In this document: positions 2,375-9,949 of the stretch, piece after piece
Position numbering within the stretch: the stretch's first letter is position 1
Layout: the number at the start of each line of letters is the position of its first letter
Assembly: GCA_030324005.1 (NCBI GenBank)
Contig: JARDVH010000106.1
Location: forward strand, 46,903,574-46,967,573
DNA: 64,000 bases
Direction of reading: 5' to 3'
Source: Negaprion brevirostris
Lineage: Eukaryota
Notes under the pieces: model-generated
What the model was told of the DNA's origin: nothing
Database searches by the model: none
What the model saw: the letters and a program-made list of their open reading frames with translations, nothing else
Translations under genes and position numbers: made by a program

Positions 2375-3050
2375 AGATGTTTGACTGTTGCACAATTTGG
2401 GCTTGTGTTTGAGTGGAATCGTAGTTGACTGATGTGATCAAGGATCAGCTGGCTGGAAAGGGGAGCTGCTGATGTTTCCTCAAGTTGCTCCCTGTATCCT
2501 TGATGGCAAGGACTGGCCCTCAATGGTTAGGTTGTGGAGGCCATCGCGAATCAGGACACACACTCAGGCTAATGCTGGTGGACTCCCTCTGGGAAATTCA
2601 AGGAATGAAATTATTTCTTCAGAACCCCAGTGGATTGCTCTATGATTTGTCAAGTACCATGGCGCTCGTGTAGAGTGAAGTTACGTGCCAGGTGTCAAGC
2701 AGAGAGTCATGAACTCCTAACAGTCATCTTCTGATTTGATGGGGTGGCTCAAATGCTCTGAGAACAACAGACTGGCACAGACAATTGTGATGGCTGCCAG
2801 GACAGTGGGCTCTCACCTGTATGATGTGCTGCATCGTCACACACAAACTACATATTTCCCAAGTGGTTGTGATGCAGTTCAGGATTTAAATGAGGCAGTT
2901 GGAAAGGCACTTGTGCAGTCAATGCCACCTTGCAACACTGGATATCCACCCCCTCCCCCACATCCCCTTCCTGACAAAACTAAGTGCACACTTCTCTCTG
3001 GTCAGAACGAACACAATGAGCTTCCCTCCTCTGGCAAAAGAAACATTGCT

Positions 3051-3348
3051 GCTTCTCAGCCTTTTGGCTAAGGTCAAGTGTAGTATTGACATGCTTGAAA
3101 TCATGAGGTTAGACTGAGGTTTCATTTGAAGCAAATTTTTAAAACGGCATCTCGGCCTTTTGGCTAAAATGCAAATGAGATCAAGCCTTGGAGGAGCCTT
3201 GCAATGCCTGTTCGAATCAGCTTGGATCATGTAGATCAAGTCCAAGACAGGGAGTGAGAGGCTTGTCTTGTCAGCTTGGATCGGGAATGTCTCACTTGCT
3301 GAAACTTGGAATTGGACTTTGATTGAATTGGATATATAAACAAAAAAA
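3051..3348 (+). mobile_element. U2 snRNA-derived composite retroposon-like element (two U2 5' fragments, unique body, A-rich tail)
   Basis: 3051-3086 matches U2 nt 4-39 at 34/36. 3147-3167 matches U2 nt 4-24 at 20/21, followed by AGATCAAG at 3178-3185. A-rich tail ends at 3348. No Sm site or 3' stem-loops, so it is not a functional U2. Confidence 0.75.
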
Positions 3349-4525
3349 TCTTATCTCTCTGTAGCAGCAGTTAGCACTATATAAAGATCATACCTAATTC
3401 ATCCTAGAAAGAATGCAATGAGATGGTCACCAGATCTAGTCATTTTGAATTAAATTTTAGGAACATTATTTTTGTAAAGTACAGGCAATGCATTAATTCA
3501 TCCTTGCTAAGTGGGAGGTAAAGGTATCTGGAATATTGGAAGTGAATGAGACTTCCTACAGAGAGCTCTTTCCTCCTCCTCCTCCGCACAATACAGCTAG
3601 TCTTTTTTGCTGCTTCTGCTCAATCTCCCCCACTTGCCTCAGTTCAAGAGTGATTGCAATTATAGCACTCAAGACGGAAAGGGGCCTGACCAGAATCCTT
3701 GCAGTCACAACTAAGCCCTTCTCTATGTGCAGCACAACTCCCTAAGCACAGACCACTTGTGTGCATGTACATGTTTGTGTGTGGGTATGTGTCTGTCTGT
3801 GTTCTTGTTGCTGAACATATGCTCAGCTCTGCATATTTAAGAGGAGGCATTGGCTAGAACAGCAAGCTCAAAAATCAGAAGTACTGGCTCTAAGTCAGCT
3901 TTACATGCTGATTGATATCACAATCTGGCTACTCTGTATACGTCTGGTGCACACTCCTTACATCCAAGTCATAACCCTCAACAAAATGACATTGGGCCCA
4001 GGCCATGTGGGAATTGTTATAGACAATACAGGCACCCCCATTTTAATACCAAAAGGGCACTTGGAATATAAACTGTCGGCACAAGGGAGCCCAATTTTGG
4101 AGCCATAATCTTTTTAGCCTTTTTTGGACTGAAAAACTTGAAACATTTCTGGTGGAGACAAAATTACAATTTTAAATTGTACCGTACTTTGCATGATCAG
4201 TGAAACATTCCTGGCAGCATTTGACTGTTGGACAATGAAAAGTGAGCACATTAGTGGTTTGGAAATGTTGATGACTGATCAAGAATAGGCAAGCAATTAT
4301 TTTTCGAGCATCTGCCGAGAAGAGGAAGAGCATTTTTCCAAATGGCTTCTATTCCTCCATCCCCTTCAATTTCAGACCAAAATTACTGGTTAATTATTAG
4401 TCATCAAAATTGATTGCTTTCTTTTCTACAATTGGTGGAACCCTGATAAACTGACAATGTTAATCACATTATGCCCATTTTTTTAGAAATTAAGTGCAAA
4501 ATGCCATTTTTCAGTGCTAATGAGT

Positions 4526-5430
4526 TTTATTGTACATTTAACAGTTATAGATGCGCAGAAGAATCAAAAAAATAATTTTCTTTTAATTGATTGATGCAAT
4601 AACTGAAACTCATGCACAAACGGCTAAAAAATCAGTGGCGCCTTCGGGGAGAGTTTTCATTCAATTCTGCCGATTAATTTATTTTCACTGACATGCCAGT
4701 GACACTGGAGATCTCCTTTTAAGCTGATGTCCATAGGCTGCTGCTTTGATTCGCAGTATTACAGGGTGGGTGAAGAAACAGTCTTTAGACTTGTACACAG
4801 CTGGTGTGGTAGGTAACTTCTGCAGAAGTTGCTTCGGCACTGCTCTCATCAGCAAGTCAGTATTTACGTAACACTGATGGAAGCAGCTTTGTTAATTAAA
4901 TAAAATAACTCGGGTATGTAGCTAAGTGCTTTACACCACTAGTAATTGAGACAAAGTTTGGTACTTAGGCGAAATCTGTTGGCGTGTCCATGTCAGCAAA
5001 AGACCTCCACAGTAACTCTCAGAACTCAAAGGTGTAATCTCACGTTGGGCCTCAGCCTCTTGCAACCTGAAAAACAGCCTTTTAGCTGGGCAATCATAGC
5101 CCAGCAGTTTCAAGACAGTGGGAGAACCGGAAATCTGTGCCAACCAGCAATCTGCCAGCTAGAGGATTCCATCGGATGCAAATAATGTACAACAGTTGCA
5201 AGAGTCATCAACACCATTAAAAAATGTAAACATAATTAATTGTTGCAATACAAGTGCAACCTAATCTCTTAATAGGGAAAAGAAATATTTCTTCAGTAAA
5301 TGTTTAACCAAAGCTTTTACAACAAAGTGCTGAAACACTGACTTTAGCCAATGGAAATCATTTTTTTCCACGACAACGAACATTTTAAACCTTGATGTGA
5401 AATCAAAACATTGTAAAATAGTGGTTTATT
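4526..5430 (-). terminator. Candidate IGSF11 polyadenylation signals (AATAAA at 5430-5425 and 4531-4526)
   Basis: Minus-strand AATAAA hexamers 2.3-3.2 kb past the stop. One is preceded by TGTA and both are followed by T-rich sequence. Other AATAAA occur at ~6795, ~6708 and ~5955, so the true site cannot be assigned. Confidence 0.25.
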
Positions 5431-5538
5431 GTTCTGGNNNNNNNNNNNNNNNNNNNNNNNNNNNNNNNNNNNNNNNNNNNNNNNNNNNNNNNNNNNNNNN
5501 NNNNNNNNNNNNNNNNNNNNNNNNNNNNNNNNNNNNNC

Positions 5539-5571
5539 TGTGAGTCAGCAGTGCTAACCACTGTGTCACCC
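5539..5571 (-). mobile_element. HE1/V-SINE-like head, remainder in gap
   Basis: ctgtgagtcagcagtgctaaccactgtgtcaccc is the reverse complement of the SINE head. Confidence 0.65.
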
Positions 5572-5584
5572 AAAAAGTGCAGCT

Positions 5585-5712
5585 CTCGTTCAGTACTGCA
5601 CCGGGAACGTCAGCCTCGATTCTTGTGCACGAATCTCGCAATAGGATGGGAAACGCGCAACTTATTGATTTGTTGTCAAAACTGCTACTAACTGAGCCAG
5701 GGCTGATACCGT
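5585..5712 (-). mobile_element. Degenerate DeuSINE-like head, CpG-rich, downstream of the IGSF11 stop
   Basis: cagtactgcaccgggaacgtcagcctcgattcttgtgc...gctactaactgagccagggctgatac parallels the heads at 12395-12492 and 59375-59480. Confidence 0.5.
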
Positions 5713-6421
5713 TCAGGTCGGATGCGGCTGTGTGTGCAGCTTTGCGGAATCCATGGTCCAACAACATATAACCGGCAGTAAATATACACAGTGATCTTAA
5801 GCAGATGAGATTCTTCTGCATGTCACTTACAACCTTTCCTGTTAACATCATATATATTGACTGCTGGAAGCCCATATTTGTTGCCTTCACATCAAACACA
5901 AGAGAAGAAGGCACATTTATTATTTTAATCCACCCCAGTACTTATTTTCACTTTATTGGGGTACTGTGGTGTTCTTTTACACATCATTTCTGTAGGATTT
6001 AATTAAATTTTATGGCTTCAGCCAAGAATCCTGGATGTTTTGTGTCTAACTAGGTTCAAGTAAAGTTCGGGTCAGAGATGAATCAGAAGAAAACACAGAG
6101 ATGGTTATCAATTTATATGATCTCATCTTGCTAAATCACCGAGCAGGCAGGTAAACAGCTCAGTCATTTGGAAGAGGCAGCAGTGATGAGTTAGAATCCT
6201 GACAATAACTAATTGCTTTAACAAAGCAATGTTTAAAAATTACAAATTTGAAAAATGTTGCAATTTCCTTAAGATGTAAATGATTAAAGGATAAAACAAA
6301 GTGGCCGCAAGAACGGTGTCTGACCTCATATTTTAATTCCAACTAATCTTCACTTAAATATTTCAGGAAGCATTTTTTAAAAAAGCAATCTATGTGACGT
6401 CGGGCTTCATCTACATGGCCA

Positions 6422-7775: not shown

Positions 7776-8202
7776 CTATACCAGAGATCCTGCCCTGTTC
7801 TGTGCAGGTATCATGACTGGTATGCCACCCATTCGCTGAAGATTTGAATGACTAACAGCATAGGAGAGTGTGTGCTGTGAAGGAGTCTTACGACTAAGTG
7901 AGCCATTGCATTTTGCTAGGTTTTGTGAAGATGGACTTCTTGTAGCTACAACCATTGCCTTTGGTGTGGCGTGGTGGCTTCCATTTGTGTACAGTGGTCG
8001 GTTCTGTGGTTGACTAGATGTCGTCGTAATTGAGTGGAGCGTGTGTCCGTTGTACCGACTGAATGGATTTGACTCATAGATCGGCTTCTTGTTTTGCCAG
8101 TAGTGGGCATTATATGTGTTTGCTGACGTAAGGGTAACATTTTCAGAGGAACTAGCTGGATGGAAACCTTTGGTAGATGTTGATGGTGGGATGTCATCTT
8201 CC
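7776..8202 (-). CDS. IGSF11: IGSF11 terminal coding exon 7 (cytoplasmic tail with PDZ-binding motif GSLV)
   Basis: Acceptor tcttttcttcag|G GAA GAT GAC. Translates (R)EDDIPPSTSTKGFH...SSSENVTLTSANTYNAHYW...NGSLSRK...LQRMGGIPVMIPAQNRAGSLV, with TAG at 7778-7776. Confidence 0.95.
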
Positions 8203-9949
8203 CTGAAGAAAAGAACATTTTCTTTTAAAACCTCAGAATAATTGTTAGCCATCTACTGATTCTGTTGCATTTTGTTATACCAATAAATATCACAAATAAT
8301 TCATGACATGAATGATGATTTATTCCAGGAGTTAAAGTGCTAAACCTGATCATAGGAAATTAAAATTCAATAAACTAAATAGATTGCACTAATCCTGCAC
8401 TCAAAATAAACACAGGTCAGAGTGCTCCATTTGCATGCAATTTCTCCCTGAGATATTTGTTCTCTATATATTTTGTTTGTACAACATTGAATCAGTGAAT
8501 TACATTAAAACTCTGATATAGCGAAGCCTATTAACCTTCTTTATGGCACGAAGAAATCAGTATCGTATATTCAAAGTATCTTCCAACAAATCTCTCAGTT
8601 CCACTGGAATTCAATCTCGCCCGTGAGAGCAGGAATCTTGCATTTCGTTAATTATTATTGACAACATTGTTCATGTTCATTAGATTAAAATATAATTAAA
8701 ATAAAACCAGTGTGCTTTACAAAGTAAACTGCTGTTCCAAAACTAAAAGCTTTAATGAATTCCACAGTACCTTGATCGTTACGCAAGTGTTCTCAAGAGT
8801 TAGAACAGACCTTGAAGTAAATTATCCCTGTATCTTGTGAGTTGCCTAGCAACTTTGAAATCAAAGTGATTTCAGTACTCCTATCAGTTTGACCTAGTTT
8901 CAAACCCACAAGTAAGTGGTGAAAGCACAACCTTCTGATCATCTGCTTCACTCTCCTCCTTATAGTTAGGTATTTATGAAGTTCATCACGAAGACACCAT
9001 AGCACAGACTAATGGTCGAGTGGATAAAAGCACAGCATGATATAGTATTGAACCTGCCCTCTGCTAAGTACCCAAATCCGTAGCATGATGACTCTGCGGG
9101 GGAATTCTGGAAGAATCAAACACGTCTCTCATCACTCTACATTGATGTTCGAACATATTACACCATCAAACTAGCCTCACACAAAATATCGCACTTGGTC
9201 ACTGAAACCTCACATTTTAAAATCGTCTTTTTAAATGTAATCTTGTATTTAATGCACCTATTACAAACAGACTGCCCAACTAATCAGACGGCCTGTGGAA
9301 AAAAAATCCTAAGGTCCGCAGAGGCCTTGTACATCATCCATTATTCCATAATCCATCAATTCTCAGCACACAATTTTTTCTGGAATCACATAATTAGGAC
9401 ATGATATTTTAGCTTACAAGGAAGACAAATGTAACTGCTATAGCCTTCAGAATGAAAACTACATTTATTCATTTAACTCGATCAATCAAGTATTCTGCAC
9501 AATGAAAATATGCAGTTCCATAATTTTTCTTCCACAGAACTTAATAAGGAACATTTTGGTGAATTCAGCATTGATGTCAATCAGAGTAATGCACATTACA
9601 TTCAGAACTTCCTGTGATCGCTAATCATGGAGCAAGAGAAGAACAGAACAAATTGGATCGATATATGTTGTACAAATAAAAACCTTATGCCCAGCATGTA
9701 TCCGTAGCTCTTCAAATGTCAAGGCTTTACATATTGTGGCTGTGCTCTTGCATGTGCAATAAACCTTTATACCACCACATCCTTCAGAACTACTGATGCT
9801 GAGATATGCCAAATGAATCAAATGTCTGTTTCAAGTTGCATCCAAAACATTTCCTCTTAGCAGGGCAACACATTCATCAGTTTAACTGGGAATACGAGGC
9901 TGAAGTTTGGCAAGTACAGGGTTTCCATAGTACAGGGGATAGTAGATAG

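Follow-up and report, generated by a model that had tools for sequence, protein, structure and literature searches.

A U2-headed, SINEU-like retroposon family in the genome of a shark, with source copies probably lodged in U2 snRNA genes

Introduction

The locus at positions 3051-3348 of the window, by which we mean the whole 64,000-nt stretch of Negaprion brevirostris DNA analysed here, begins as U2 snRNA and ends in a run of A, and raises the question of whether it is a truncated U2 pseudogene or a copy of a mobile family and, if the latter, how a sequence with such a head comes to be transcribed. Short retroposons with snRNA-derived heads, SINEU-1, -2 and -3, are reported in crocodilians alone, with Tx1-Mar as partner, in the parts of PMC4494074 drawn on here. 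The transcription of SINEU is left open there, as U1 and U2 are without an internal promoter, and flanking promoters are suggested with R2 cited as a parallel; the same source describes Tx1-11_Crp as beginning with a U2 head. Our literature search found no U2-headed SINE outside crocodilians (Repbase and Dfam lay outside its scope, and a Repbase entry may exist), and the consulted parts of a paper on chimaera and shark SINEs (PMC5499810) mention neither 'snRNA' nor 'SINEU'.

The copy in the window

The features of the copy are as follows.

3051-3086, plus strand: U2 snRNA head, nt 4-39 of U2, ending right after the branch-point recognition sequence
3087-3108, plus strand: body start, imperfectly antisense to the head and predicted to fold back onto it
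3119-3141, plus strand: small hairpin, weakened in the window copy, and T run, the latter aligned by Rfam to the Sm-site region of U2
3147-3170, plus strand: second U2 copy, nt 4-27, a predicted closed hairpin
3169-3176, plus strand: 8-mer resembling the octamer, where the second U2 copy ends, of no special conservation
3178-3228, plus strand: hairpin module 1
3233-3282, plus strand: hairpin module 2, with base and internal loop as in module 1, 53-54 nt further on, and a different top stem
3289-3305, plus strand: short hairpin 3
3306-3348, plus strand: 3′ tail of subfamily 1 type, with short repeats and a 7-nt A run
3349-3355, plus strand: 7-mer directly behind the A run, identical to U2 nt 44-50

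The initial annotation had read the head as U2 nt 4-39 with 34 of 36 bases identical, which holds against the genome's own U2 gene (L031), and positions 3045-3049 may represent U2 nt 1-5 followed by a 3-nt slip. The Rfam U2 model gives the window copy 42 bits, below its cut-off of 46 (E 7.5e-06). The second U2 copy, claimed to span nt 4-24, was found at 3147-3167 and in the family runs to nt 27. Re-reading of the window sequence likewise places the octamer at 3169-3176, the 8-mer repeats at 3178 and 3233, the 12-mer repeats at 3217 and 3271, the stem that pairs 3243-3250 with 3263-3270 and the A run up to 3348 where they had been claimed.

Compared with the family described below, the window copy lacks 9 nt at the body start. 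No clear target-site duplication (TSD) was found at this copy, and its flanks match none of the element loci that were fetched. The 7-mer at 3349-3355 is possibly a decayed remnant of read-through into U2, although it is weak and was spotted post hoc; a U2 match straight after the A run occurs in 1 of 46 unselected copies, at a chance of 0.45% per site and with about 0.2 expected. The body of the window copy is 92.6% identical to the consensus of subfamily 1 and 88.2% to that of subfamily 2, values ordinary for the family, and 3051-3348 is a decayed copy of a retroposon family of about 310 nt.

Further along the window, two minus-strand ORFs at 7776-8252 (158 codons) and 5426-5941 (171 codons) are possible exons of a host gene; a Pfam search of both gave no match.

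A dispersed family with two subfamilies

Searched against the 2.69-Gb gapped assembly, the 262-nt non-U2 body proved multi-copy and not single-copy, as the initial annotation had anticipated. The query returned 2,692 candidates, and among the 40 scored the 39 besides the query itself are near full length and 85-87% identical. An exact 21-mer of the body has 1,020 matches genome-wide, against 0 for the reversed control, and since this 21-mer is intact in 15 of 30 and in 8 of 23 copies picked by other means, we put the family at roughly 2,000-3,000 copies, with a wide error. From 90 loci we obtained 49 complete gap-free copies, the window copy left out, and these fall into two subfamilies of 29 and 20 copies that are told apart by 24 diagnostic columns and whose members have a mean identity of 92% and 94% to their own consensus.

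The element is about 310 nt long, non-coding and A-tailed. Its 5′ ends lie at U2 nt 1-35 with a median of 7 (62 copies) and its terminal A runs measure 4-12 nt with a mode of 8-9. TSDs, counted when at least 8 nt long with one mismatch allowed, are present in 14 of the 55 copies with both ends, compared to 1.6% by chance in a null of swapped flanks. The earlier proposal of a non-autonomous, U2-headed retroposon family rather than a simple truncated pseudogene is sustained by the multi-copy body, the two subfamilies and the TSDs. That this is a real family, spread by retroposition, is in our view virtually certain. No target-site consensus, U2-like or other, was found among 70 element and 27 LINE flanks, nor any repeat common to the insertion points, Mariner included, among 70 element 3′ flanks.

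Two groups of relatives were seen beside these copies. A third tail type, often with 5′ U2 extensions, is found at L253, L254, L256, L274, L282, L283, L308, L309 and L313, copies which fall outside the 49-copy subfamily analysis, and L273, L310 and L321 represent an older family, 70-80% related, with the U2 head, partial hairpin modules and another tail.

A probable partner LINE at the Keno site

Four places came up when the genome was searched for an A run with U2 39-57 behind it. At two of them (L091 and L103) the A-tailed 3′ end of a LINE adjoins U2 nt 38 of a variant U2 repeat, the third (L098) is the element itself at a junction of A run and U2, and the fourth (L096) borders an assembly gap. 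Insertion of this LINE at U2 nt 37/38 is thus seen at L091 and L103, with a third locus, L172, broken at nt 40, and U2 nt 37/38 is the insertion site of Keno (PMC6136364; PMC4640811).

The LINE is dispersed, with 1,299 candidates for its 3′ end and 156 for its endonuclease region, and because U2 nt 38 follows 0 of the 29 dispersed 3′ ends read it is not specific for U2 genes. In Pfam its ORF1 matches two ZCCHC3-type RNA-binding domains (RBD_ZCCHC3_1st and RBD_ZCCHC3_2nd) and zf-CCHC, its ORF2 matches RVT_1 and zf-RVT, and its endonuclease is without a match. We take this domain set, of a ZCCHC3-type plus CCHC ORF1 and the ORF2, to be that of the Tx1 clade, and presume its endonuclease to be of the APE type that goes with it.

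Several loci bring element and LINE together. A U2 head is present in 2 of 5 longer LINE copies (L213 and L214). At L215 one TSD of about 16 bp is present three times, flanking the LINE-element pair on either side and separating its two members; mixed tandem arrays of the two are found at L214 and L157; and the element directly follows a LINE 3′ end in 2 of 65 copies and another element in a further 2 of 65. Element and LINE are both joined to U2 nt 38 onward, are both U2-headed and have one insertion site in common. The U2 head is the only significant sequence that they share, as neither the comparison of element tail and LINE 3′ UTR, which covered one LINE family (p 0.17-0.33), nor that of element body and LINE 5′ UTR (p 0.25-0.86) is significant, and a candidate origin of the octamer and hairpin base from the U2/5′ UTR junction of the LINE was dropped because the resemblance is not significant. 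The initial annotation had suggested that the element was mobilised by, or derived from, a U2-targeting LINE. A link to such a LINE is backed by the junctions at U2 nt 37/38 and the common insertion site at L215, whereas derivation finds no backing in the comparison of 5′ UTR and body, and for this partner LINE the tail comparison does not make the body the end of a LINE. We consider it very probable that the Tx1 LINE is the partner of the element.

Two LINE-like groups (L271, L291, L300, L306, L312 and L292, L293) have fixed heads of U2 1-55 or 1-57 and another 5′ UTR start. All five loci of the first group run into assembly gaps, beyond which L291 has the element tail and L312 the LINE 3′ end, and they may be short LINE derivatives.

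U2 sequence 3′ of the element

When the tail was searched together with the U2 that follows it, 6 of 40 scored loci (query included) passed from the A run into U2 nt 38-43. The six long read-through loci reach U2 nt 109, 114, 188, 229, 230 and 235, where numbering beyond nt 191 denotes the 3′ flank of the gene. Five of them enter the major U2 type and one, L108, the variant type, and since both types are joined to the element the site was hit at least twice. All six belong to subfamily 2, as did the search query. Exact subfamily-2 tails run straight into U2 39-44 in 6 of 546 cases, where 0.2-0.3 are expected (P ~1e-6). The pattern of subfamily-1 tail plus U2 39-52 has 0 matches, so that the subfamily to which the window copy belongs yields no exact case of long read-through. 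From the pattern-match set 50 of 73 loci were read, of which 21 are chance matches without an element; 23 of the 29 element copies in it have a U2 match of just 5-6 nt, in several cases an ordinary TSD, and were excluded from read-through.

At seven further loci (L218, L219, L252, L259, L267, L110 and L283) the A run is followed by 6-17 nt of U2 and then by a second A-rich run, which also closes two of the long loci, L104 and L105. A U2 piece with a second A run is the pattern that 3′ read-through of a source inside a U2 gene would leave. Among the 68 loci with an intact U2 27-44, by hand count, a single one (L275) is a stand-alone short A-tailed U2 copy. The TSD of L110 equals U2 38-47 (10 bp), which fits an element that entered a U2 retrocopy already in place, and L108 and L298 may likewise have arisen by direct insertion. 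By eye, no clear outer TSD was found around the long U2-continuing loci. Changes in the U2 3′ part common to L106 and L107 were considered as proof of a single source and set aside, being too few and found in plain pseudogenes too.

U2 sequence 5′ of the element

The exact sequence of U2 27-44 has 73 matches at 68 loci, which were sorted by hand, 57 being read and 11 assigned by place. They comprise 32 U2 5′ pieces before the element, 3 before its older relative, 14 before the LINE, two of these assigned with less certainty, 14 long loci that are genes, variants or pseudogenes of U2, and 5 short stand-alone pieces. In the 44 measured loci the 5′ pieces end at U2 nt 44-58, that is 7-21 nt past the cut site and within the size range of a TSD. 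A script detected an outer TSD enclosing piece and element in 3 of 16 loci (null 0.8%), and inspection by eye found one in seven (L274, L282, L283, L303, L308, L309 and L313), the two counts arising because the scripted test misplaced the tail end in several loci; U2 straight after the A run is found in 0 of the 16. The outer TSD together with the lack of U2 after the tail indicates that U2 piece and element moved as one event. On the LINE side, an identical junction of U2 55 with the 5′ UTR recurs in five loci and another junction in two. Units of this kind were therefore copied whole, a point in favour of a genomic U2 source.

Two loci extend beyond the start of U2. Before nt 1, L317 (about 42 nt) and L282 (about 7 nt) carry the upstream spacer of the variant U2 repeat, and the blastn alignment for L317 covers 27 nt of spacer together with U2 1-8 (E 1.4e-4). 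As mature U2 RNA cannot supply this spacer, these loci too favour a genomic U2 source.

The best U2 gene of the genome, L031, scores 188 bits, and we infer from this score and its unique upstream region that it is a working gene. The upstream region of the intact U2 gene has 5 matches in the genome. At L172, 84 nt that are 89% identical to the promoter-proximal region are followed by U2 1-40, by 7 of 8 body-start bases and then, across a 5-nt microhomology, by LINE endonuclease sequence. This locus is decayed and offers about 8 diagnostic bases, five of them common to the LINE; judged on its order of parts, it is a decayed U2 gene that likely held the element, and it counts likewise in favour of a genomic U2 source. 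A locus with intact promoter, head, body, A run and U2 3′ part was not found in the gapped assembly. The 5′ start positions were also tried as a test between models and showed no difference (p 0.22).

Predicted fold of the RNA

The subfamily consensus folds far better than its shuffles, with z about -3 to -6 (-6.0 and -4.8). The first ~40 nt of the body are predicted to pair with the head in a duplex of -34 and -27 kcal/mol, a value reached by 0 of 2,000 shuffles and compared to -21 for the best other window, and at least 10 head-body pairs are kept in 42 of 49 other copies. This fold-back is predicted to hide at least four, and up to all six, of the branch-point recognition bases. Paired columns make up 63% of the body but hold just 6-7 of the 20 subfamily differences (Fisher p 0.002 and 0.007), whereas private changes are even across stems and loops (0.70 vs 0.64 and 0.63 vs 0.55 per column). 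The pattern suggests selection on the stems in source copies followed by neutral decay, in a test that leans toward the structures because these were drawn from the same consensus sequences. Compensatory double changes in the stems were not shown, and RNAalifold on the 49 copies returned a weak and implausible long-range fold (-4.5 kcal/mol), so the structure rests on the subfamily folds.

A model for transcription and spread

We propose a model, to which we assign a probability of about 0.7, in which source copies of the element lie inside U2 genes at nt 37/38, the Keno site, and are transcribed with them, and in which a Keno-like Tx1 LINE, mostly without site specificity, has copied the family. 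Transcription of the source copies from the U2 locus, taken as a claim of its own, is likewise probable on the genomic footprints. Insertion into a U2 gene would place the element behind the external U2 promoter, giving an RNA that begins at U2 nt 1. The target duplication of 7-21 bp would have this RNA begin with U2 1 to 44-58 and continue with the element's own head. Priming by the LINE enzyme would mostly take place at the short internal A run, giving rise to ordinary copies, and occasional priming further 3′ would yield copies with U2 3′ sequence. The dispersed copies, that of the window included, would be promoter-less and decaying. In the source lineage, which would have kept the stems, the first ~40 nt of the body are predicted to fold over the U2 head and hide its branch-point recognition sequence.

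Whether the family stands for a class of promoter-less retroposons, with invaded U2 genes as sources, re-seeding by the LINE, an external promoter yielding RNA that opens with genuine U2, an antisense arm under selection in source copies that covers the branch-point pairing bases and so spares splicing, and the same LINE scattering thousands of dead copies, we would put at even odds. If true, this would explain the transcription of SINEU generally, make the snRNA heads a by-product of target choice and mark a second origin in cartilaginous fish. The fossil footprints of transcripts, namely 3′ U2 read-through, upstream spacer, TSD-sized extensions and a promoter-bearing junction, point to a concrete answer to the question of expression. 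Moreover, snRNA-headed SINEs now extend beyond crocodilians and are linked directly to the Keno site, and the element provides a naturally occurring RNA in which the working end of U2 is present and, by prediction, masked.

Alternative explanations

The alternative that survives best, though we think it unlikely, is the SINEU model (PMC4494074) applied to the same family and Tx1 partner. Here the heads and extensions arise by jumping of the reverse transcriptase onto U2 snRNA, unrelated flanking promoters drive transcription, and the loci that continue into U2 result from separate, site-specific insertion into pseudogenes of U2. Template jumping would account for the stacked U2 pieces in L270, L294, L319 and L324, for the U2 pieces joined to a 5′-truncated spacer in L282 and L317 and for the microhomology of 2-4 nt on which most 5′ extension junctions sit, which fits a U2-gene source equally. 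In the literature, U1 extensions on SINEU-2 (ends scattered across 22 nt) are read as template switches, in a case where insertion into a U1 gene is not known (PMC4494074), and internal switching to U5 is reported (PMC4476161). The latter paper, however, finds such switching mostly confined to U6 and U6atac; the extensions of our element stop 7-21 nt beyond the cut site, a distance that matches a TSD in size, and spacer upstream of U2 nt 1 is not obtainable from mature U2 RNA. Insertion into U2 pseudogenes is in turn consistent with the U2-derived TSD of L110 and with the LINE 3′ ends at U2 nt 38 in L091 and L103, but the short A-tailed U2 retrocopies needed as targets are rarer (1 of 68 loci) than the element copies with short U2 and a second A tail (7 loci).

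Far less probable is a LINE origin, with the element as a truncated or internally deleted member, either SIDE-like or a LINE 3′ end, of an unsampled Tx1 family. L291, in which U2 2-58 is followed by LINE 5′ UTR, an assembly gap and the element tail, speaks for this reading, and by eye the hairpin base looks like the opening bases of the LINE 5′ UTR. L291 nonetheless spans a gap, neither resemblance is significant (p 0.17-0.86), body sequence lies inside the LINE in 0 of 30 endonuclease loci and 0 of 5 longer LINE loci, and nearly all copies with a visible 5′ end begin in the U2 head (62 starts, nt 1-35).

Slightly less probable still is a self-sufficient SINE, transcribed from internal Pol III boxes or with the octamer as a captured snRNA enhancer. 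Many active sources would make thousands of copies easier to reach, and the octamer is exact in 35 of 49 copies. A role for the octamer, whose sequence the initial annotation had noted as the Oct-1 element of snRNA distal enhancers, was not borne out, as 24% of the 8-nt windows of the body are kept as well or better, and the octamer sits inside the transcript whereas the distal element of snRNA genes lies about 220 bp upstream (PMC4494074). The element holds three or four internal runs of 4-6 T and no exact A or B box, with one-mismatch hits to loose A/B-box patterns only, which together with its U2 head sets it apart from classical Pol III SINEs; in Rfam it matches U2 alone, with no tRNA, 7SL or 5S head. 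The weakest reading takes the copy at 3051-3348 for a chimeric U2 pseudogene that arose once, or for a functional non-coding RNA gene. It could point to the missing TSD and to the strong predicted structure of the family consensus. The multi-copy body with its thousands of relatives refutes the one-off pseudogene, and the reading as a whole is highly improbable: the window copy is ordinary at 92.6% to its subfamily consensus and has lost 9 nt of the fold-back arm, and private changes are equal on stems and loops.

Relation to known systems

The comparisons below draw on parts of the cited papers (further comparison literature: PMC4758252). The element is SINEU-like by design, and is compared by description, not as a member of SINEU-1, SINEU-2 or SINEU-3. 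It resembles these in its snRNA-derived head, repeated U2 additions, length below 500 nt, A tail and internal T runs; in a tail that is not shared with the one LINE family compared, in tandem copies sandwiching a TSD and in a Tx1 partner with a U2 head; and in being a true family from source copies, here with two subfamilies, and not a sum of chimeras. It differs in lineage and in having no preference for Mariner-N4 or any other repeat (70 flanks). A further difference is that element and LINE are here still found at U2 nt 37/38, with U2 3′ read-through, upstream spacer and an antisense arm over the head.

Keno is a Tx1-clade LINE specific for U2 genes (PMC6136364, PMC4640811). Our partner LINE is like it in its Tx1-type ORF1 and ORF2 and in the A tail at U2 nt 38 of L091 and L103, with L172 broken at nt 40, but is mostly dispersed and, at the 29 dispersed 3′ ends read, never runs up against U2 nt 38; the element itself is non-coding. 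Utopia has the U2 site in common, and some of its families are weakly specific; it possesses a restriction-like endonuclease, whereas the partner LINE has Tx1-type domains (PMC4640811).

The R2 SIDE and R2/R1 SIDE of Drosophila consist of joined 5′ and 3′ LINE ends with a ribozyme, lie in 28S genes and are co-transcribed with them (PMC3414825). Like them, the element is short and non-autonomous and is found where a target-specific LINE inserts in a multicopy RNA gene. Its proposed co-transcription with U2 genes, with which the genomic footprints fit, would be a further parallel. In contrast to SIDEs it has no detectable LINE ends (p 0.17-0.86), uses the 5′ end of the host RNA as its head and occupies thousands of other sites. 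Chimeras of snRNA and L1 also place an snRNA piece before a retroposon within one TSD (PMC4476161, PMC5322556), but these are one-off, whereas here a fixed head/body junction and subfamily variants are inherited by thousands of copies.

Further observations on U2 loci

Tailless snRNA retropseudogenes are described in the same two papers (PMC4476161, PMC5322556), and tailless pre-U2 retrocopies with TSDs occur here too (L039-L041). More broadly, tailless U2 retrocopies with up to ~40 nt of 3′ flank, several with clear TSDs, are found at L035, L039-L042, L044-L046, L050 and L056, and end near the same point as L106, L107 and L109.

The variant U2 is about 84% like the major gene and lies in a tandem unit of ~492 bp, three units of which are 99.7-100% identical (L036-L038 and L177, at G000:C157 ~37.355 Mb; also L060, L091 and L103). 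Its repeat has no likeness to the promoter of the major gene, and hosts LINE and element insertions, one of which is an A run alone (L103).

At L175 (L108) another repeat is inserted exactly at the junction of head and body, and the piece directly before the U2 head resembles what we take to be 5S rRNA. Finally, three U2 genes with high scores, L032, L033 and L034, carry an additional base around nt 30, differ strongly in their 3′ half and likely come from another organism in the assembly, one of them lying inside a large scaffold.
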